Positions 2,593-28,201 of a DNA stretch of 29,281 nt are shown piece by piece; position 1 is the first letter of the stretch; the number at the start of each line of letters is the position of its first letter. Origin of the DNA: a virus. Taxonomy: Duplodnaviria; Heunggongvirae; Uroviricota; Caudoviricetes. The translations under genes were made by a program, and so were the position numbers. The stretch covers positions 1 through 29,281 of the IMG/VR virus record IMGVR_UViG_2923302340_000002, one strand, 5' to 3'. The notes under the pieces were generated by a model. It worked only from the letters and a program-made list of their open reading frames with translations. It was not told where the DNA came from and did not search any database.

Positions 2593-4164
2593 TTACTGAG
2601 AGCTCAGATCAACTTTCCAGGGCAACAGATCGCGTACCCGGTTTGCCGGCCAGTCCTGGATATGTTCAATGACGTAGCGCAGCCACTTTTCTGGCTCCAC
2701 ATTGTTCAGACGGCATGTGCCGATCAGCGAGTACAACACCGCCGCATGTTCACCACCGCTGTCGGAACCCGCGAACATCCAGTTTTTCCGGCCTACGGCC
2801 ACTCCCCGTAAGGCGTTCTCTGCGATGTTGTTGTCGATTTCCACCCAGCCATTACTGCAGTACACGTTCAGTGCATCCCACTGTTTCAGCAGGTATGCGA
2901 ACGCTTTTGCCGTATCTGAGTGACGCGACAGTGTTTTCATCTGTTGCTGTATCCAGTCATACAGTGACTGCATCAGTGGCGCGGCTCTGGTTTTTCTTGC
3001 CGCCAGACGCTGTTCTGCTGAACAGCCCCGGACCTCTGCCTCGATGGCATACAGTTCACCGATACGCTGCAGGGCTTCCGTGGTGATGTCGGTGGGCGCT
3101 CTTGCATGCACATCGTGGATTTTTCTCCGGGCATGAGCCATACACGCGGCTTCCGTTATTCTGCCGGATTCGTATAACGCCCGGTAACCACCGTAAGCAT
3201 CGGCCTGAAGCACACCGCTGTAACCGGCCAGGTGATTTTGTGGATGGATACCTTTCCGGTCCGGACTGTACGCGAACCAGACCGCCGGGGGCATCTGTGA
3301 ACCGGCGTTACGGTCATCACGGACGTAGACCCACAGCCGGGCTGTCCGGGGTTTACCGCTGCCCGGCTCCTGGACCGGGACGGGGATATCATCAGCATGG
3401 ACTTTACCGGGCATCAGCACATACTGGCGCAGGACGTCATACAGCGGCTCCAGTAGTTCAGCAACGGCACCTGTCCAGCGCCCCAGCGTGGCGCGGCTCA
3501 GCTCCACACCCTGACGGCGGTATATCTCTGACTGGCGGTATAACGGCAGATGGTCTGCATATTTTCCGGTGACGACATGGGCCAGGAGCCCCGCTCCGGC
3601 ATAACTGCGTGCAATGGGTTTTGAAGGTACTGGTGCCTGCACGATATGGTCGCACCGGCAACAGGCCAGTTTCGGACGTTGTGTTTCGATAACCTTAAAG
3701 GCGCTGCTGATAAGCTCCAGTTGCTCTGACACATCACATCCCAGAGAACTGAGTTCACCACCACAGGCCGGACAGCATTCCTCTTCCGGCCGGATAACCC
3801 GGGTTTCACGGGGAAGTGAGGCCGGTAACGGTTTACGGGCTGAAGACTGGCGCAGGGCGGATGGCAGTACCGGGTCATATTGCTCACCCAGCGTTTCCGC
3901 CATTTCTTCCTGAAGTGCGCTGATTCGCTCCTGTGCTTCCTGTATCTGCCGTTCGGTTTTTGCGCGAAGTTTTTCTGAGCTTTTACCGAACTGCATACGC
4001 TGCAGTTTCGCAACCAGCGCCTTCAGCCGGTTGATTTCGGAAGCATAAGCCGCCACCCGCTGTGAGAGCAGGCGGTTGTATTCAGCCATCTGGCGTATGG
4101 TGTCCTGTTGCGTCTGCAACAGTGCCCGCAGGCGGGCGTTCTCATGAGCAAGTGAGGTGTCCAT
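2593..4164 (-). CDS. tnpC: IS66-family transposase (TnpC / orf3)
   Basis: 523-aa ORF with an N-terminal coiled-coil region ([33 protein letters not shown]), a Cys-rich zinc-binding segment (CPACGG...CCRCDH) and a C-terminal catalytic region, as typical of IS66 TnpC. Confidence 0.9.
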
Positions 4165-4183
4165 ATCCTCACTTTACAACGGG

Positions 4184-4531
4184 TTATATACGGATTCCAG
4201 CGCGTTCCGTTCGTTTCGGGTGCTTCCAGTTGATACCTTCAAGAAGCATGGATAACTGAGCCGGAGTAAGGTGCACCTTGCCGTCACGGGTGACTGGCCA
4301 GACGAAGCGGCCCCGCTCCAGGCGTTTGGTGAAGAGGCACAGTCCGTCACTGTCAGCCCACAACACTTTTATCTGGTCACCCCGGCGTCCGCGGAAGATG
4401 AACAGGTGTCCGGAGAACGGGTCATCCTTCAGGACGTTCTGAACTTTTGATGCCAGGCCGTTAAAACCATTTCGCATGTCGGTGATACCGGCAACCAGCC
4501 AGATACGCGAACCGGCAGGGAGAGATATCAT
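4184..4531 (-). CDS. tnpB: IS66-family accessory protein (TnpB / orf2)
   Basis: 115-aa ORF MISLPAGSRIWLVAGITDMRNGFNGLASKVQNVLKDDPFSGHLFIFRGRRGDQIKVLWADSDGLCLF, typical IS66 Orf2. Its start overlaps the upstream ORF stop. Confidence 0.9.
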   Translation of the reverse strand: MISLPAGSRIWLVAGITDMRNGFNGLASKVQNVLKDDPFSGHLFIFRGRRGDQIKVLWADSDGLCLFTKRLERGRFVWPVTRDGKVHLTPAQLSMLLEGINWKHPKRTERAGIRI

Positions 4532-5208
4532 CAGTGGCTGCTCCCTTTCATTTCGCGGATAAGTGTCTGTAATAACGCCGGCGTCAGTTTACCTTTAAGC
4601 CTGAGAGTTCCGGCCGGCAGAACCAGCTCGCAGCACAGACTGTCTGGCAGTGTATTTATCTGTTCAGGTATCTGCACTGGTGCCGGGATTTTATTATCCG
4701 GCTCCGGCGTTAACGTCACGGGAAGTAGCGATGTTTCATGTTCGCCGGGCGGCTGCAGGCCGCCGTTACGCCAGAGATGCCGCCAGTTAAAGAGCAGGTT
4801 ATCGTTGATTCCGTTTTCCCGGGCGATCTGCGCCACACAGGCTCCGGGCTGCAGTGACTGCTCCACTAAGGCGATTTTAAACTCATAAGGGAAGTTGGGC
4901 CGCCGGGGACGTTTTTTTACCACGGGGGCTTCGGATATAACGGTGCTTTCAGGACGTACGACTGGTACCGTGGAAAATTGTCCGTAAAGGCAGGCATCAA
5001 GTTCCTGCTCCGACATGCCTGCGGGCAAAGGCCACGAAAGGCCAGCTCTCCGAAAGCGCACGAACATACTACAAACTGTTGATTTTGGTACACCCAGGCG
5101 ACGCCCGGCCACAACCCGGGGTAAATGTTCTTCAAAGTGAAGACGTAAAGCTTCAGTGATCCAGGTCCGGTGTTTCATACGATAGTGTCCATTAAAAATG
5201 ATGGACAT
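4531..5208 (-). CDS. tnpA: IS66-family helix-turn-helix protein (TnpA / orf1); the true start may be internal to the 225-aa ORF
   Basis: The ORF contains the segment RPNFPYEFKIALVEQSLQPGACVAQIARENGINDNLLFNWR typical of IS66 Orf1. It is longer than usual for this protein, so the start codon is uncertain. Confidence 0.7.
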   Translation of the reverse strand: MSIIFNGHYRMKHRTWITEALRLHFEEHLPRVVAGRRLGVPKSTVCSMFVRFRRAGLSWPLPAGMSEQELDACLYGQFSTVPVVRPESTVISEAPVVKKRPRRPNFPYEFKIALVEQSLQPGACVAQIARENGINDNLLFNWRHLWRNGGLQPPGEHETSLLPVTLTPEPDNKIPAPVQIPEQINTLPDSLCCELVLPAGTLRLKGKLTPALLQTLIREMKGSSH

Positions 5209-5244: not shown

Positions 5245-5718
5245 TTAAATGAGCCGGTTACGTTTCAGGAAATCAACATGTCGGTTTTCCAGTTCCGGAA
5301 AACGCCGCTGTACCGAGAGAGGGATCCCGTCAAGAATACTGGCAATTTCACCTGCGATCCGTGACAGCACGAAAGTACAGAATGCGGTTTCCACCACCTC
5401 TGCGGAGTCTCTGGCATTCTTCAGCTCCTGTGCGTCGGCCTGCGCACGCGTAAGTCGATGGCGTTCGTACTCAATAGTCCCAGGCTGGAGATCTGCCTCA
5501 CTGGCAGCCCTGTAACCCTCAACCTCTTTACGGAGTTTTTCATTTTCGATATCAGCTTCCCTCTGCGCATACCACTGAATTGCCATGGCGGTATCAAATA
5601 CAGATTCAACGCCCTTACCACCTCCGGAGACACAAGGGAGTCCCTGAGATTGCCAGCGTTCAATCGTTCGCGGATCCACGTTGAAAATTTCGGCAAGTTT
5701 CTTTTTATTAACCTTCAT
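5245..5718 (-). pseudogene. nu1: Terminase small subunit nu1, truncated by the IS66 insertion after about codon 153, with the last four codons and the stop supplied by IS sequence
   Basis: [39 protein letters not shown]...[15 protein letters not shown] follows lambda Nu1 and then diverges into NRLI-stop exactly at the IS junction (5261/5262). Confidence 0.85.
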
Positions 5719-17980: not shown

Positions 17981-18688
17981 ATGGTTCAGAATGAAAAAGT
18001 GCGCAAAGAATTCGCCCAGCGGCTAGCGCAAGCCTGTAAAGAAGCTGGTCTTGATGAACATGGTAGGGGAATGGCCATAGCCCGTGCCCTTTCTCTTTCG
18101 TCCAAAGGCGTTAGCAAATGGTTTAATGCTGAGTCTTTACCGCGTCAGGAAAAAATGAATGCGCTTGCGAAATTTCTAAACGTTGATGTTGTTTGGCTTC
18201 AGCACGGCACTTCGTTAAATGGAGCGAATGATGAAGATACTCTTTCATTTGTTGGCAAATTAAAAAAAGGGTTAGTGCGCGTGGTTGGTGAGGCAATTCT
18301 TGGTGTTGATGGTGCCATCGAGATGACCGAAGAGCGCGATGGGTGGCTCAAGATTTATAGCGATGATCCAGATGCCTTTGGTCTTCGTGTGAAAGGAGAC
18401 AGCATGTGGCCTAGAATAAAATCAGGAGAATATGTACTCATTGAGCCTAACACCAAAGTATTCCCGGGTGATGAGGTGTTTGTCAGAACCGTTGAAGGAC
18501 ACAACATGATTAAGGTTCTTGGCTATGACAGAGATGGAGAATACCAATTTACAAGCATCAACCAAGACCACAGGCCAATAACGTTGCCTTATCATCAAGT
18601 AGCAAAGGTGGAGTATGTGGCTGGTATTCTGAAGCAATCTCGCCATCTGGATGACATCGAGGCAAGGGAGTGGCTGAAAAGTTCGTGA
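17981..18688 (+). CDS. cI: CI repressor (HTH domain plus LexA-like S24 autopeptidase domain), immunity type not lambda
   Basis: 235-aa ORF with an N-terminal HTH region and a C-terminal LexA-like S24 peptidase-like segment (VKGDSMWPRIKSGEYVLIEPN...). Divergent from cro. Confidence 0.85.
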   Translation: MVQNEKVRKEFAQRLAQACKEAGLDEHGRGMAIARALSLSSKGVSKWFNAESLPRQEKMNALAKFLNVDVVWLQHGTSLNGANDEDTLSFVGKLKKGLVRVVGEAILGVDGAIEMTEERDGWLKIYSDDPDAFGLRVKGDSMWPRIKSGEYVLIEPNTKVFPGDEVFVRTVEGHNMIKVLGYDRDGEYQFTSINQDHRPITLPYHQVAKVEYVAGILKQSRHLDDIEAREWLKSS

Positions 18689-18793: not shown

Positions 18794-19531
18794 TTGCAAA
18801 ATAACTATCTACAGGTTATAGCCTATACTAGGCGCATGAATGATGGTATGACCAAGCCATTCCTTTGTACTTGCCAAGATGGGCTGGCTTACATAGTTAA
18901 AGGAAGGCCAAAACTTCGCCAAAAAGAGCTTGTAGCAGAATTTATTGCCGCCCATCTAGCAAAACAGATAGGTCTGCCATGTCCTGATTTTTGCATTGTT
19001 GATGTTGATTGTGGGTTAATCGAGTTCATGCCTGACTTGCGTGGTGAGCTTTTGCCTGGACCTGCATTTGCTACCCGCTTTATTGAAAATGCATCAATCA
19101 TAAATATTCAACAAGCAAGGAGTGCTGTAACCATTCAGGAACAAAAGAAAATATTCTTCTTTGACCGCTGGATAAACAACGCAGACAGATCATTGACTGA
19201 CATTGGTGGTAATGTAAACATAATTTACGATGCATTTAACAATAGGTATTACCTGATTGACCATAATCTGGCGTTCGCGCAGGATACAAGATCTCATGAG
19301 TATGATGTCCATGTGTATTCGCCGAATGGAAGACCGTGGGTTTTCGACATGCTCGACGAACCCGAACTGATGGATCTTGCAAATGATGCTATTAGTTCAG
19401 TAGAGGAGAAATTTAATCAGCTTCCGGATGAGTGGTTTTCAACCGATGAAGAACGAAGGCTAATGCTGAATGAGATAATGAACTGCCTGAACAGAGTGCA
19501 CGACAGAGAGTTTTGGAGTAACATCAAATGA
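18794..19531 (+). CDS. Kinase-like protein (tentative HipA-like / atypical kinase fold) at the rexA-equivalent position; the true start may be the internal ATG at 18836
   Basis: Same strand as cI and 105 bp downstream of it. Contains WINNADRSLTDIGGNVNIIYD ... YYLIDHNLAF, resembling a kinase catalytic loop (D...N) followed about 20 residues later by a DFG-like IDHN. Motif-level resemblance only. Confidence 0.4.
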   Translation: MQNNYLQVIAYTRRMNDGMTKPFLCTCQDGLAYIVKGRPKLRQKELVAEFIAAHLAKQIGLPCPDFCIVDVDCGLIEFMPDLRGELLPGPAFATRFIENASIINIQQARSAVTIQEQKKIFFFDRWINNADRSLTDIGGNVNIIYDAFNNRYYLIDHNLAFAQDTRSHEYDVHVYSPNGRPWVFDMLDEPELMDLANDAISSVEEKFNQLPDEWFSTDEERRLMLNEIMNCLNRVHDREFWSNIK

Positions 19532-20346
19532 CCACACCATGCCTGTATAGCATTATTAGATATGCTCCATATGCAGAAACCGAAGAGTTTGCTAATGTCG
19601 GTGTGGTTCTTTGTGCCCCGAAATTAGGTCAGTTTTGCTTTAAACTGACCCAAAGCAACAATGCCAGAGTAAAAAACTTTTTTCAGGATGAAATCATTTT
19701 CCCTCACGCGAGGGATGCAATTGCAAGAGAGCTAAAATTTGCTCAAGAGCAAAGTTATAAATTCAATTCTCCTGAAAAATTAGCAAATTTTTTCAACTAC
19801 TTAATTGGCAGGAAAGAGTCAATCATTCATTTTAGCTCTGCAAGAGTTGCAATGTCTGCTTGTCCACAAGACATGATGCACATACTTTTTAATAAGTTTG
19901 TACATCATTCAGAAATAACAAAAGAATCTCGTGAGACCATCCTGACGAGAGAGCTTAAGCATCGTTTCTCTCATTATAACGAACTCAGGAACGCCTTTAA
20001 AAAGGAAATGCTTGGTGGTGAACTAACGCGGTTTTCTGTACCATTTGTTGCCCGTCACGATGGAGAGATTTTATGTGCTATCAAACCCCTAACATTCACT
20101 CAGGACAAGCCTGAGAAAATGTTGGAGCACTGCGACTCTTGGACGGCCAAAATTCTGCGCGCCGCCAGTGAAAAAATTTTATCTGTCTCAAATGTGTTAT
20201 TTACGATAGATGCACCTCGCCAGCCAAGTGAGCTTGAGGTAAAAGCGATGAGTGAGATTCGTAAGACATTCGATGAGAAAGGTATAAATCACGTAGAGCA
20301 TCAGGATGAAGCATCAATAGTAAAGTTTGCTAAGCAAGCAATTTAA
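19528..20346 (+). CDS. Hypothetical 272-aa protein, translationally coupled partner of the kinase-like gene (rexB-equivalent position)
   Basis: Its start overlaps the upstream stop (ATGA at 19528-19531). It is followed directly by a strong intrinsic terminator. No recognised motif. Confidence 0.4.
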   Translation: MTTPCLYSIIRYAPYAETEEFANVGVVLCAPKLGQFCFKLTQSNNARVKNFFQDEIIFPHARDAIARELKFAQEQSYKFNSPEKLANFFNYLIGRKESIIHFSSARVAMSACPQDMMHILFNKFVHHSEITKESRETILTRELKHRFSHYNELRNAFKKEMLGGELTRFSVPFVARHDGEILCAIKPLTFTQDKPEKMLEHCDSWTAKILRAASEKILSVSNVLFTIDAPRQPSELEVKAMSEIRKTFDEKGINHVEHQDEASIVKFAKQAI

Positions 20347-20373
20347 CCCGGCCACCGAGCCGGGTTTTCTTTT
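20346..20373 (+). terminator. Intrinsic terminator ending the cI-proximal lysogenic operon (timm-like)
   Basis: CCCGGC-CACCGA-GCCGGG hairpin followed by TTTTCTTTT, starting at the stop codon of the 272-aa gene. Confidence 0.7.
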
Positions 20374-20379
20374 CCTCTC

Positions 20380-20640
20380 GATCGCCCACCTAAAAATACA
20401 TAATCGATTGTATTTGTTGAAAAATAAATAGATACAACTTGCTAAACAGTGCAACCCTGATCCCTGCCCTATCACCTTCACCCTCAACATTTACAAAAAT
20501 AAAATACCTTATATATCAAAACCATATCTCGAGAAAACGAATGAACAATAAAATTTCGTACTTATGGTTATTGATTATATCGAACCAATAGTTCATTATT
20601 ATCACCATCAGCAGGACGCTGGAAGCCAAACGGAACAGAC
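20380..20640 (+). promoter_or_regulatory. Presumed OL/pL region (AT-rich)
   Basis: AT-rich 260-bp region between the lysogenic-operon terminator and nutL. Contains TTTCGTACTTATGG, related to the OR motif. Confidence 0.35.
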
Positions 20641-20645
20641 TGGCA

Positions 20646-20692
20646 GGCTCTTTAAACAACGTCGAACTCTCGACTACGTGGCTGAAAAGCCA
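20646..20692 (+). promoter_or_regulatory. nutL candidate (boxA-like GGCTCTTTA and boxB hairpin TGGC-TGAAAA-GCCA)
   Basis: Located about 100 bp upstream of the N start. boxB has the same GAAAA loop as the nutR candidate. Confidence 0.5.
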
Positions 20693-20790
20693 GATCACCC
20701 AACCACATGAGCTGTGGGATGCAATGCCGAAGCAACCGTCTCAGGAGGAGCTTCGAGATTGCATCACCAAAGTTTATTCGGGAGGAATCT

Positions 20791-21063
20791 ATGTCCAGAA
20801 AAACAGAATTTAAAGGCACCGCAGCTTCTCGCCGTAGAGCTCGTCGCGCAAACCTGCAAAGTCAGGAGGCGATTAGCTCCGACAAGCTACACAGGCCAAC
20901 CACCTCACGAGTGGTCTTGCAATGCAAGCGCAAACCAGCAATGAGAGCAGAAGTTATAACTCTGACAACGTTGATCAGAAAATATGAAGGTTCAACTTGT
21001 CTTCCAAACGTAGCTCTTTACGCGGCAGGCTACCGGAAATCAAAACAACTGACGGCGAGGTAA
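20791..21063 (+). CDS. N: N-type antiterminator (arginine-rich motif), start taken at the internal ATG with a GGAGG Shine-Dalgarno
   Basis: MSRKTEFKGTAASRRRARRANLQ: arginine-rich RNA-binding motif near the N-terminus, the first gene of the leftward operon after nutL. The ORF track extends the frame upstream to 20707. Confidence 0.7.
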   Translation: MSRKTEFKGTAASRRRARRANLQSQEAISSDKLHRPTTSRVVLQCKRKPAMRAEVITLTTLIRKYEGSTCLPNVALYAAGYRKSKQLTAR

Positions 21064-21065
21064 TT

Positions 21066-21428
21066 ATGGGTCAGGAAGAAAAATATGAGCTTAAAAAGCT
21101 CATTGGAGAAGACGCCATAGAAGAAATTGCAGCATTAACAACAGCTATAAAGAATATTAGGTATGCGCTAAATACGCTTATCTCCTCATGCGACAAAAAT
21201 AGCAGGGAATTTTTGATACTTGGCGCAGCTCTAGGAATAGTTGATGCGGCAACGCTTCACCTAATTACTCATGACGATATTCTTATTGAGCCGTATGAAA
21301 CATTACTGCTTGTCAGGCAAAAAATGGCTGATGCCGCAGCAAATGGAGACCTTCAACTTTACATCGACTTAAGGAAAGTATTAAGGCGAATGGTCAAAAC
21401 TGAAGGAGATATCCCCCTGACAAAGTAA
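21066..21428 (+). CDS. Hypothetical protein (120 aa from the internal start MGQEEKYELKK)
   Basis: ORF immediately following N. No recognised motif. Confidence 0.45.
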   Translation: MGQEEKYELKKLIGEDAIEEIAALTTAIKNIRYALNTLISSCDKNSREFLILGAALGIVDAATLHLITHDDILIEPYETLLLVRQKMADAAANGDLQLYIDLRKVLRRMVKTEGDIPLTK

Positions 21429-21458
21429 GGGGGTGAAGAGGCCATTTCAGGAATAAAA

Positions 21459-21953
21459 TTAATAATTTGTCAGCGGCGGTACATATACAGGCTTAGGGTC
21501 TGGCGCTCTATACATCCGGTATTCATTCTTACAGCGAGGACATGAATGCACAAAGAACCCATTAGATTTTATAGTAACCGTGCTTGGTTGAAGTATCGAT
21601 ATTTTATGTTCGCCGAAGCAATGTGCACAAAGGTTATGCTGCTGAATAGAAGGATCGGAATGACTCTTAGGTCGATACACGACAGAACCACCTTCAGTTG
21701 TATGAAGTTCATAATTCTCAGCTTGCACAACAAACATCTTGATTTTTCTATTTTCATCTCGAAGCTTCATTGCGATCTCCTTCTCGGCCTGATAAAGGCC
21801 AGAGAGCTCCGCATTAAGCATCTGTAAGTCAGTTATTCTTTGGTGTAGATCACCAATAGCTTTAGCGATAACAGCATCGTCTCTGGTTTCTTTTATTGTC
21901 TTCAGCAGATCATAAGCCTGTTTCGCGGCAGTTATACCAGATAACACATCCAT
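21459..21953 (-). CDS. Hypothetical protein with an N-terminal coiled coil and a C-terminal CxxC...CxxC zinc-ribbon-like motif, oriented against the pL operon
   Basis: 164-aa ORF with CAHCFGEHK ... SCPRCKNEY. Opposite strand to the surrounding early-left genes, so it needs its own promoter in the 21954-22153 region. Confidence 0.5.
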   Translation of the reverse strand: MDVLSGITAAKQAYDLLKTIKETRDDAVIAKAIGDLHQRITDLQMLNAELSGLYQAEKEIAMKLRDENRKIKMFVVQAENYELHTTEGGSVVYRPKSHSDPSIQQHNLCAHCFGEHKISILQPSTVTIKSNGFFVHSCPRCKNEYRMYRAPDPKPVYVPPLTNY

Positions 21954-22153
21954 ATAAATTACTCTCTTACTGTAGGGGTAAGAGGATTTTACTCTTTTTC
22001 TCGCTGTAGGGGTACACGAGAACCACCGAGCCTGATGTGGTTAAAAGACAGGCACAATCTTTACTACCGCAAGCCACGCAGTGAAATGGGTGTGACTTGT
22101 GTTGGTCTCCAGAAAATGAAATTAGACAGCAAACCACTTATTTGAGGTGAGAT

Positions 22154-22624
22154 ATGACAAAATCATGGAGCGTACCTTTTCCTGAATCAGAAACTGAACA
22201 TGATGGAATGCCTGTTTTCTGGAGATTCCAGGCGACAGTTGAAGAAGATGGAATCAAAATATTCGCACTTCAATATATAGCTTTTCATCAGACAGAGCAT
22301 TATGCATGGTTGGTTCCTGCGCATTGGATTGTTAATTTTAAACCAGCACCAAATCAGTGGTTACAGGAATGGAAACAAAAGAGAAATAGATATGCAATTA
22401 AGAAAGTAGCAAAAAATGCAGAAAGATCTTTTGCATTCCCAACGAAGAAACTTGCTATTGAAAGTTTATTGCGCCGGAAGAAATACCATTTAATGAGAAT
22501 AAAACAAGATTTGGCTGTTGTATCAACTCTTGTTGATGGGATGAAAAATATTGATACATCAACACCAGATATTGAATATAACTTTGGGCACAACCAAGAA
22601 ACAGAAAATTGGGTATTTTATTAG
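22154..22624 (+). CDS. Hypothetical protein (156 aa) in an AT-rich moron
   Basis: ORF preceded by an AGGTGAG Shine-Dalgarno and followed by hairpins and a terminator. AT-rich codon composition. Confidence 0.5.
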   Translation: MTKSWSVPFPESETEHDGMPVFWRFQATVEEDGIKIFALQYIAFHQTEHYAWLVPAHWIVNFKPAPNQWLQEWKQKRNRYAIKKVAKNAERSFAFPTKKLAIESLLRRKKYHLMRIKQDLAVVSTLVDGMKNIDTSTPDIEYNFGHNQETENWVFY

Positions 22625-22728
22625 TACGAGTAAGCACTGTGTATTCATTCCAACGAGTGAATACACTGAGCAATGTCGCTCGTAACTAAACAGGAGCCGA
22701 CTTGTTCTGATTATTGGAAATCTTCTTT

Positions 22729-22755
22729 GCCCTCCAATGTGAGGGCGATTTTTTA
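22729..22755 (+). terminator. Intrinsic terminator
   Basis: GCCCTC-CAATGT-GAGGGC hairpin followed by GATTTTTTAT. Confidence 0.65.
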
Positions 22756-22774
22756 TCTGTGAGGATATGAATAG

Positions 22775-23143
22775 ATGTCAAACATCAAAAAATACATCAT
22801 TGATTACGACTGGAAAGCATCAATAGAAATTGAAATCGACCATGACGTAATGACAGAGGAAAAACTTCACCAGATTAATAATTTCTGGTCAGACTCTGAA
22901 TACCGACTCAATAAACACGGCTCTGTATTAAATGCTGTATTAACCATGCTGGCGCAACATGCTCTGCTTATAGCAATTTCAAGCGACTTAAATACATATG
23001 GTGTTATGTGTGAGTTCGACTGGAATGATGGAAATGGTCAGGAAGGATGGCCTCCAATGGATGGTAGCGAAGGAATAAGAATTACCGATATCGATACATC
23101 AGGAATATTTGATTCAGATGATATGACTATCAAGGCCGCCTGA
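22775..23143 (+). CDS. Hypothetical acidic protein (122 aa)
   Basis: ORF with an upstream GAGGATATGAATAG Shine-Dalgarno-like region. No recognised motif. Confidence 0.45.
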   Translation: MSNIKKYIIDYDWKASIEIEIDHDVMTEEKLHQINNFWSDSEYRLNKHGSVLNAVLTMLAQHALLIAISSDLNTYGVMCEFDWNDGNGQEGWPPMDGSEGIRITDIDTSGIFDSDDMTIKAA

Positions 23144-23215
23144 ACGCGGCGTTACCGCATACCAATAACGCTTCACTCGAGGCGTTTTTCGTTATGTATA
23201 AATAAGGAGCACACC

Positions 23216-23380
23216 ATGCAATATGCCATTGCAGGGTGGCCTGTTGCTGGCTGCCCTTCCGAATCTTTACTTGAACGAATCATCCGTAAATTACGTGACG
23301 GATGGAAACGCCTTATCGACATACTTAATCAGCCAGGAGTCCCAAAAAATGGATCAAACACTTATGGCTATCCAGACTAA
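23216..23380 (+). CDS. cIII: CIII (54 aa; absent from the ORF track because it is under 60 aa)
   Basis: Manual translation from the ATG at 23216 gives MQYAIAGWPVAGCPSESLLERIIRKLRDGWKRLIDILNQPGVPKNGSNTYGYPD, matching lambda CIII apart from one residue. Preceded by an AAGGAG Shine-Dalgarno. Confidence 0.85.
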   Translation: MQYAIAGWPVAGCPSESLLERIIRKLRDGWKRLIDILNQPGVPKNGSNTYGYPD

Positions 23381-23462
23381 ATTCACTATCGCCACTTTTA
23401 TTGGCGATGAAAAGATGTTTCGTGAGGCCATCGAAGCCTACAGAAAATGGAGGTCAAAATGA
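23349..23462 (+). CDS. kil: Kil-like protein (37 aa as read; may be shortened relative to lambda Kil)
   Basis: MDQTLMAIQTKFTIATFIGDEKMFREAIEAYRKWRSK, overlapping the cIII 3' end in another frame as in lambda. Confidence 0.5.
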   Translation: MDQTLMAIQTKFTIATFIGDEKMFREAIEAYRKWRSK

Positions 23463-23647
23463 TTCCGGTAGAACTGGCGAAAACTCCAGAATTAAGTCGA
23501 TTAAAAAGAGAATATCACATTGCTGAGGCTCGTTACTGGCGTAAAGCGGGAGATAAATCAAAGAAACAACTTTGTTTATGGCAGGCTCAAAGAGAGCGCA
23601 TGAATGAGCGCGAGTTTCTTTCCGTCCCATCCGAATTACCATTCTGA
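23447..23647 (+). CDS. Hypothetical small basic protein (62-66 aa)
   Basis: ORF overlapping the kil stop. Start could be 23447 or 23459. Confidence 0.4.
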   Translation: MEVKMIPVELAKTPELSRLKREYHIAEARYWRKAGDKSKKQLCLWQAQRERMNEREFLSVPSELPF

Positions 23648-27712: not shown

Positions 27713-28201
27713 TCAGAGGCCCTGACATTGCTGTCGGTTATTCAATAAATCATGATAATAAGCCTTGATCGCATCATTTGAGATGATTGACGAGCCAATA
27801 CCATTATAAGCTTGTGACCAAGGCGTACCAGGCATATGAGTTAGAGTTGATAACTCAATTCCATTTTTCGAGCCGTAAAATTTATAAACAGCCCCTATAA
27901 TGCTCTCTGCTTGTGGATCCATAGTAACAATGCCACCAAAAGGAGCTACTGCTACATTCGTAACAGGTTTATTCCCATAATCTTTGAAAGCATCGTACAT
28001 TCCAGGAATAACTGGACCGTACTTCCACGCGGAGACACATTCATTGAGCAAAGGCTTACCTGTTAATGCTAAATAGTAACCATGTGCAATATAAGTAAGC
28101 TTCTGCAGTTGCATGTGGGTCAGAGGATTATGATGTTGGTTTCCCAACGTTATGAATTTATTGGCTATTTGTACCGGGCTGTACATAACCACCCTCCTCA
28201 T
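27713..28201 (-). CDS. Panacea (DUF4065) domain protein, antitoxin-type
   Basis: 162 aa with YSPVQIANKFI ... THMQLQKLTYIAHGYYLALTGKPLLNECVSAWKYGPVIPGMYDAFKDYG, the pattern I associate with the Panacea domain. Confidence 0.6.
   Translation of the reverse strand: MRRVVMYSPVQIANKFITLGNQHHNPLTHMQLQKLTYIAHGYYLALTGKPLLNECVSAWKYGPVIPGMYDAFKDYGNKPVTNVAVAPFGGIVTMDPQAESIIGAVYKFYGSKNGIELSTLTHMPGTPWSQAYNGIGSSIISNDAIKAYYHDLLNNRQQCQGL

Follow-up and report, generated by a model that had tools for sequence, protein, structure and literature searches.

What does a lambda-like prophage of Escherichia coli keep between the antiterminator gene N and the gene cIII of its early-left (pL) operon, and why does one of the genes found there run against the operon? 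This question is raised by IMG/VR record IMGVR_UViG_2923302340_000002, a stretch of 29,281 nucleotides (nt) that is called the window here. The window lies within a prophage of this lambda-like kind, with the pL operon on the plus strand and late genes of the lambda Nu1/gpA type on the minus strand, and its gene order runs from a cI-like repressor through two genes at the rexAB position, N and an hkaQ-like open reading frame (ORF) to the three ORFs of the segment in question and cIII. A preliminary description of this segment (positions 21,429 to 23,215), made from the letters alone, had read the three ORFs, one of 164 amino acids on the minus strand and two of 156 and 122 amino acids on the plus strand, as autonomously transcribed morons and possibly as exclusion or anti-defence genes expressed in the lysogen. 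All three are present where that description had placed them, and since each has a match (PHROG 1244, 1636 and 646) among protein families conserved in phages, they are real genes. They are also AT-rich, as had been remarked, with a GC content of 0.414 for the 164-amino-acid ORF, 0.352 for the 156-amino-acid ORF (ORF156) and 0.385 for the 122-amino-acid ORF, compared with 0.468 for the window and 0.51–0.54 for the late genes. We report that the minus-strand gene belongs to the Rip1 family by sequence and fold, and that the segment between N and cIII is a mosaic of known accessory modules plus one gene to which the searches assigned no function. The account that we consider probable as a whole is that of a Rip1-type gene standing behind a promoter of the sieB type, accompanied by ORF156 and ea10 as genes of the pL operon and by the terminator known from lambda as tL2a, the 3' end of the small RNA (sRNA) LPR1.

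The minus-strand gene encodes a protein that is 99.4% identical to HkaP of phage HK620, where hkaP is annotated as 'putative superinfection exclusion protein' (AF335538). A phmmer search of the Protein Data Bank (PDB) with the single sequence reached the Rip1 chain of entry 9oox with an expectation value (E) of 1.8e-10 over residues 3-146, with both CxxC pairs aligned, and a profile built from 23 homologues matched chain L of the same entry, named 'ring interacting pore 1 (Rip1)', at E 1.3e-17. The title of 9oox describes Escherichia phage HK446 Rip1 complexed with the small terminase of Enterobacteria phage T6. By BLASTP the protein aligns over its full length with HK446 Rip1 (28% identity, E 4e-14) and with gp30 of phage JBD30 (27% identity, E 1e-16), and each of these three proteins is 164 amino acids long. 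The AlphaFold2 model, with a predicted local distance difference test (pLDDT) score of 84.4, contains helices at residues 3-22 and 26-78 and a beta domain at residues 81-149. When this model was compared with the PDB by Foldseek, 9oox was the sole significant match (chain M at E 7.5e-7, probability 1.0 and template modelling scores of 0.57/0.70, with chain L also at the top), while the next, unrelated match had an E value of 0.68. The CxxC...CxxC motif that had drawn attention to the gene corresponds to C109, C112, C138 and C141, and all four cysteines are invariant among the 23 homologues. No Pfam, NCBIfam or PADLOC family was assigned to the protein by the library scans, which returned sub-threshold noise only. 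The profile and structure searches that the preliminary description had proposed for the three proteins thus gave the Rip1 fold for this one; they gave no fold for ORF156 and no solved relative for the 122-amino-acid protein.

The family is widely distributed. It was found by tblastn in 30 Pseudomonas phage records, including those of the Mu-like phages JBD30, DMS3 and D3112. The clade of the HkaP type is present in phages HK620, HK629 and HK630. Of 5426 complete E. coli genomes, 65 carry it, for the most part O26 Shiga-toxin strains, and the gene goes there by the name 'hypothetical protein'. This 'hypothetical protein' can now be read as a defence protein of the Rip1 type, and it may shape the superinfection of the carrier strains, including superinfection by Shiga-toxin (Stx) phages.

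In the passages of the 2026 review PMC13434031 that summarise Patel et al. (2026, Nature 651:1060), Rip1 is described as a prophage protein that unites sensor and effector and that provides a single-protein abortive-infection defence, in which portal or small terminase rings of the infecting phage trigger the formation of membrane pores. Rip1 alone is not toxic, phages that escape it carry mutations in the portal protein or the small terminase, and 12 Rip1 monomers surround the 11-mer ring of the small terminase; the N-terminal amphipathic part forms the pore and the C-terminal half touches the ring (the same passages of PMC13434031). Relatives are said there to be common across proteobacterial prophages, and in these sources activation by rings and pore formation are known for the Pseudomonas and HK446 Rip1 proteins only (PMC13434031; PDB 9oox title). 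By analogy with these proteins, the HkaP-type protein would be made in the lysogen, from a conserved promoter of the sieB type and against the pL operon, and would stay soluble and idle until a superinfecting phage produces its ring-shaped portal or small terminase. The C-terminal zinc-ribbon domain would then dock round the ring, the N-terminal amphipathic helices would form a pore in the membrane, and the infected cell would be dead before progeny could mature. The protein has no hydrophobic or transmembrane segment (the maximal Kyte-Doolittle average over 19 residues is 0.6), in keeping with a soluble protein that becomes active when triggered and not before. The window protein resembles Rip1 of HK446 in its length, in the succession of N-terminal helices and a C-terminal beta domain with two CxxC pairs, in being a single prophage-carried gene antisense to the flanking lytic operon, and in its locus directly after N with identical promoter and leader. 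It differs in that the identity of 27-28% places it in a separate, HkaP-type clade, that of HK620, HK629, HK630 and the O26 prophages. A further difference concerns the Pseudomonas Rip1 proteins, the original gene of which adjoins the large terminase gene and does not lie in an early-left operon.

From where is this gene transcribed? Window positions 21997-22077, read on the minus strand, are 98.8% identical by blastn to lambda 34373-34453, the region upstream of sieB, and thereby form one of the joints of the mosaic. Alignments with lambda, P22, HK620 and HK446 show this conserved promoter core as an almost invariant block that extends into the leader. The P22 record NC_002371 annotates a sieB promoter at 29690-29720 and a sieB RNA start at 29727, and the promoter elements of the window (Table 1) were placed by aligning with this annotation. 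The tandem repeat that the preliminary description had seen at 21961-21980 and 21991-22014 exists, and its exact core consists of the two ACCCCTACAG boxes of this sieB-type promoter; the core has these two matches and no others in the entire window, even if one mismatch is allowed. In the window, lambda, P22 and HK446 the two boxes lie 34 nt apart. The likeness to the SieB systems of lambda and P22 thus comprises essentially the same promoter, including both ACCCCTACAG boxes and the position of the -10 hexamer, and also the same slot, as sieB lies directly after N in lambda and directly after gene 24, the N analogue, in P22, in both cases on the strand opposite to pL. What differs is the protein, which has no sequence similarity to lambda SieB. 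SieB resides in the membrane and has an internal product, Esc; the window protein has no hydrophobic segment. The sieB promoter is reportedly active in P22 lysogens. Since the HkaP-type gene is a rip1 homologue and its promoter is nearly identical to that of P22 sieB, the best reading is that it is a lysogen-expressed exclusion gene with a promoter of its own, which agrees for this gene with what had been suggested before for all three ORFs; for ORF156 and ea10, which are better read as genes of the pL operon, that suggestion is not supported.

How general this arrangement is was surveyed with an exact 28-mer, which retrieved at least 120 IMG/VR loci; together with loci collected earlier, 126 occurrences of the promoter cassette were evaluated by script. 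Among the matches listed, an ORF follows the cassette in 117 of the 126 occurrences, and the proteins encoded there fall into separate SieB and Rip1 groups and no other type: 91 are SieB alleles, 16 are Rip1 proteins of the HK446 type and 10 are Rip1 proteins of the HkaP type. The sieB locus is thus an exchange site at which two unrelated defence effectors are swapped behind one common promoter. Again among the matches listed, the boxes are spaced by 34 nt in 113 of the 120 scorable occurrences and by 35 nt in the other 7, box 2 is kept in every locus that reaches that far, and the -10 hexamer occurs as TAAACT, TAAAAT, TATAAT or TAACAT and in no other form. The spacing kept across these occurrences means that the box pair is not a chance feature. 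More distant relatives extend the comparison. In Yersinia, where the rip1-type gene lies between Q and the holin gene, the TAAACT hexamer is kept and the far-upstream core differs (positions 3445-3488 of our loci L130 and L131); L130 has both ACCCCTACAG boxes 34 nt apart, and the second box of L131 reads ACCCCTACAA. In the Pantoea homologue (L132, 3445-3487) the boxes are 33 nt apart, and in the upstream regions of the Enterobacter and JBD30 homologues that were compared the boxes are missing. A genome-wide gapped scan for the two boxes returned mostly chance or CRISPR-like repeats and lambda contamination, together with one informative locus in Symbiopectobacterium, in which the cargo gene is Rip1-like. 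As an observation in its own right, 100% matches to lambda SieB turned up in assemblies of Shewanella canadensis, Nocardioides marinquilinus and Lacrimispora defluvii (L212, L201 and L202), and these are most likely lambda DNA contamination.

A possible, if rather doubtful, alternative is that the ACCCCTACAG boxes have no regulatory role and that the cassette persists as a 'linker' for homologous recombination between the modules of mosaic phages. About 60 nt upstream of the -10 hexamer are nearly invariant among these phages, which is far more than a promoter needs, the joints of the mosaic lie at the edges of the block, and RNA of this region read from the pL strand does not fold in any unusual way. 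The Yersinia locus argues in the other direction: since it keeps the boxes, their 34-nt spacing and TAAACT despite a different upstream core, the boxes appear to travel with the promoter and to be more than a scar of recombination. Moreover, the sequence between the boxes varies and the boxes and their spacing are constant. Other explanations of the region were considered and given up. The pL-strand RNA across the promoter has no unusual structure (fold z -0.69; -0.69 and -1.33 for the wider region round the hairpin at 21963-21985) and the rip1 leader is unstructured (z +2.1), and for this reason a leader hairpin masking the ribosome-binding site was dropped. A small ORF on the pL strand within the promoter core, beginning MWLKDRH..., was rejected, as the P22-type and MPNWIEAV-type alleles have ACG and not ATG in its place, and readings of the boxes as sigma-32 or LexA sites were rejected by eye on account of misfitting spacing.

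Why, then, does the gene run against the operon? In HK446 the rip1 gene (gp37) also lies directly after N and antisense to pL, and its upstream region is identical to that of the window up to the ATG. Distant relatives of HkaP are antisense after N in Pantoea, between Q and the holin gene in Yersinia and Enterobacter, and next to cI in PhiR29_2 and vB_EcoM-689R2. In JBD30, the one Pseudomonas phage inspected in this respect, the homologue lies between the large terminase gene and the gene of a 'DNA binding protein' upstream of it. In all 10 sampled contexts, each of phage or prophage (the window and our loci L002, L007, L008, L130-L133, L255 and L256), the Rip1-type gene points against the lytic operon, early or late, that flanks it. 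As lambda sieB, HK446 rip1 and all of the sampled Rip1 contexts share this orientation, it characterises the family and the locus alike. The universal antisense placement suggests that read-through during the own lytic cycle could silence these genes. On a tentative reading, when pL or pR' of the resident prophage fires, antisense read-through would switch Rip1 off, and the own portal and terminase rings would then not act as triggers. A likeness is offered by the sas RNA of P22, an antisense RNA from pL transcription that is said to shift translation from SieB to Esc. Taken together, the two promoter boxes and the conserved antisense position of the gene hint at a way in which such prophages escape self-killing on induction. 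A wider view, which we put forward tentatively since we think it unlikely to hold in its entirety, sees in the sieB-type promoter with its ACCCCTACAG boxes a portable control unit that serves the 'suicide' effectors of prophages, namely SieB and two clades of Rip1, in the antisense placement a means of self-immunity, and in ORF156 a new early counter-defence protein in the slot of ral. The account preferred here, that of a Rip1-type gene behind the sieB promoter, brings no new principle and overturns no existing knowledge; it leaves the region mostly explained and is modestly new.

The two ORFs on the plus strand have a different history. By blastn, window positions 22634-23451 match lambda at 97.8% identity over a stretch that begins just after ral, takes in ea10 and cIII and ends within kil, and with the joint upstream of sieB this places ORF156 precisely where lambda has orf28 and ral. 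The 122-amino-acid ORF agrees with lambda Ea10 in 119 of 122 residues (98%) and, as judged by this identity, is lambda Ea10 itself. Likewise, the intrinsic terminator that had been noticed after ORF156 exists and corresponds, by its sequence, to lambda tL2a and hence to the 3' end of the lytic-cycle sRNA LPR1. Lambda ea10 is a gene of the pL operon. In lambda, LPR1 is an Hfq-bound sRNA of about 88 nt that ends at tL2a and whose expression is seen during lytic growth but not in the lysogen (bioRxiv 10.1101/2024.10.31.621285), and Ea10 is dispensable for plaque formation and has no known function (PMC10695390). The copy of LPR1 in the window folds stably (z -3.27). Both tL2a and tL2b are known internal terminators of the pL operon that are overridden by N (HK620 annotation). 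A search of the PDB gave no solved relative of Ea10, and an Rfam search over 20300-23600 found the cIII thermoregulator and no family on the promoter region or on LPR1. A 9-bp inverted repeat, GTGTATTCA ... TGAATACAC (22639-22667, plus strand), is found where the spacer begins, immediately before the LPR1 region, and is kept in lambda and HK620.

ORF156 is the gene to which no function could be assigned. Of the 5426 complete E. coli genomes, 597 (11%) have it, with up to four copies per genome, and it is carried as a module that includes its own upstream 61 nt. The gene comes directly after N in Stx2a phage 981509, and in Pectobacterium a homologue of 63% identity lies immediately before xis-int and in the same orientation. 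Its family matches, PHROGs 1636, 13631 and 25384, are all of unknown function; scans against Pfam, NCBIfam and PADLOC gave nothing above noise, and neither a close nor a distant profile matched the PDB. A search of 1.84 billion representatives returned 87 small relatives, none with a Pfam domain, and the AlphaFold2 model (pLDDT 62.8) had no Foldseek match in the PDB below E 1. With Ral it shares the position and no homology, Ral being an unrelated protein of 66 amino acids. A consensus scan of 21954-22153 found no promoter-like site on the plus strand, a weak negative because the same scan missed the sieB promoter. The divergent promoter that had been assigned to ORF156 was an interpretation and not an observation. 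Most likely, ORF156 is an early-left operon gene read from pL and dependent on N. From its position alone one may guess, with low confidence, at a host-directed or counter-defence factor like Ral, and its presence in 11% of the complete E. coli genomes makes it a reasonable candidate for counter-defence screens.

That all three ORFs are autonomously transcribed morons, with a bidirectional promoter in 21954-22153 active in lysogens and with ea10 as a separate unit behind a terminator of its own, is improbable on these grounds. The base composition of the three ORFs, the terminators that flank ORF156 and ea10, the spread of ORF156 as a mobile module with its own 61 nt and the insensitivity of the promoter scan would all suit such an arrangement. 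However, ORF156 replaces orf28-ral precisely and elsewhere stands behind N or before xis-int on the operon strand, and the third ORF, taken before as an independent moron, is a lambda gene preceded by the LPR1/tL2a block, which is expressed in the lytic cycle and silent in lysogens, and lies among terminators that N is known to override. Even less probable is that the 164-amino-acid protein forms no pore and acts as a nucleic-acid-binding regulator with zinc ribbon and coiled coil or as a SieB-like exclusion factor, for although the gene sits in the sieB slot behind the sieB promoter, the HK620 copy is annotated as a putative exclusion protein, zinc ribbons are often nucleic-acid binders (with a weak Pfam match to Zn_ribbon_SprT at E 0.014, below the family cut-off) and the identity to the tested Rip1 proteins is low, the Rip1 alignment spans the full length including both CxxC pairs, Rip1 is the sole significant structural match, BLASTP against lambda SieB gives E 0.93 and a hydrophobic segment is missing.

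Some points nevertheless weigh against the account of a Rip1-type gene behind the sieB promoter with ORF156 and ea10 in the pL operon. The identity to the experimentally studied Rip1 proteins is just 27-28%, and ring triggers are assigned to the HkaP clade by analogy with the characterised Rip1. The sieB-type promoter has a poor -35 element and was missed by the consensus scan, and its activity in the window phage is extrapolated from P22. For ORF156 a weak promoter of its own is possible, and the missing fold match says little because the confidence of the model is low.

Table 1. Features of the early-left region of the window, with coordinates in the window, strand and the evidence or remark belonging to each.
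Feature	Position	Strand	Evidence or remark
cI-like repressor	17981-18688		
Antiterminator N	20791-21063	+	Borders the variable segment on its upstream side; Pfam PF25694 N_peptide, E 4e-31; start codon set from the RefSeq annotation of E. coli O26 11368
hkaQ-like accessory ORF, 120 amino acids	21066-21428	+	PHROG 7374, E 2e-79; no other family
Weak terminator-like hairpin	21404-21418	-	6-bp stem and U-rich tail, consensus scan; follows the rip1-type gene and may end its transcript
rip1-family (HkaP-type) anti-phage gene, 164 amino acids	21459-21953	-	N-terminal helices 3-78, C-terminal beta domain with four-cysteine zinc ribbon
Hairpin with U-rich tract, 9 pairs	21963-21985	+ (pL sense)	Terminator-like scan hit immediately beyond the 5' end of the antisense gene; may act as a weak terminator on the pL strand or form the 3' end of an antisense RNA
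ACCCCTACAG box 2	21970-21979	-	Covers the first ten nt (+1 to +10) of the predicted rip1 mRNA, which would start at A21979
-10 hexamer TAAAAT	21986-21991	-	Same position as TAAACT in P22 and lambda
ACCCCTACAG box 1	22004-22013	-	-34 to -25, overlaps the -35 region
ORF156, conserved early-left accessory protein, 156 amino acids	22154-22624	+	PHROG 1636, E 5e-112
Lambda ral-ea10 intergenic block	22634-22774	+	2-3 mismatches to lambda over ~140 nt
LPR1 sRNA homologue	~22668-22755	+	By lambda correspondence, ends approximate
Terminator tL2a	22727-22756	+	Stem 22727-22748, T-run to 22756; found by scan
ea10 (DUF2528), 122 amino acids	22775-23143	+	Pfam PF10800, E 4.2e-47 (cut-off 22 bits)
Terminator tL2b	23167-23193	+	Between ea10 and cIII; scan hit at 23167-23186; corresponds to the tL2B annotation in HK620
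cIII mRNA thermoregulator	23203-23261	+	Rfam RF01804 Lambda_thermo, full-length match, 88.5 bits
cIII	23216-23380	+	Downstream border of the segment; Pfam Lambda_CIII, E 3e-29

Besides the three ORFs, the stretch between N and cIII holds a fourth accessory ORF that the preliminary description had passed over, the hkaQ-like ORF, the DNA of which is 99% identical to HK620 hkaQ. It lies between N and the rip1-type gene, and it accompanies hkaP in HK620 and in the O26 prophages. Further elements lie elsewhere in the window. In the slot of lambda rexA-rexB, next after the cI-like repressor, the plus strand encodes a HipA_2-type kinase (245 amino acids) and a DUF3037 protein (272 amino acids) that overlap by 4 nt (18794-20346) and correspond to PDC-M66A/B, a candidate defence pair of PADLOC (E 9e-19 and 9e-15). 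An IS66-family element on the minus strand (2593-5208), which consists of a helix-turn-helix orf1, a TnpB-like orf2 and a DDE transposase, lies between Nu1 (5245-5718) and gpA (566-2491), and because it separates these two genes the prophage may be unable to package DNA. Finally, an ORF with a SocA/Panacea antitoxin domain (E 6e-18), found far out in the early-left region on the minus strand (27713-28201), is possibly a member of a toxin-antitoxin pair.

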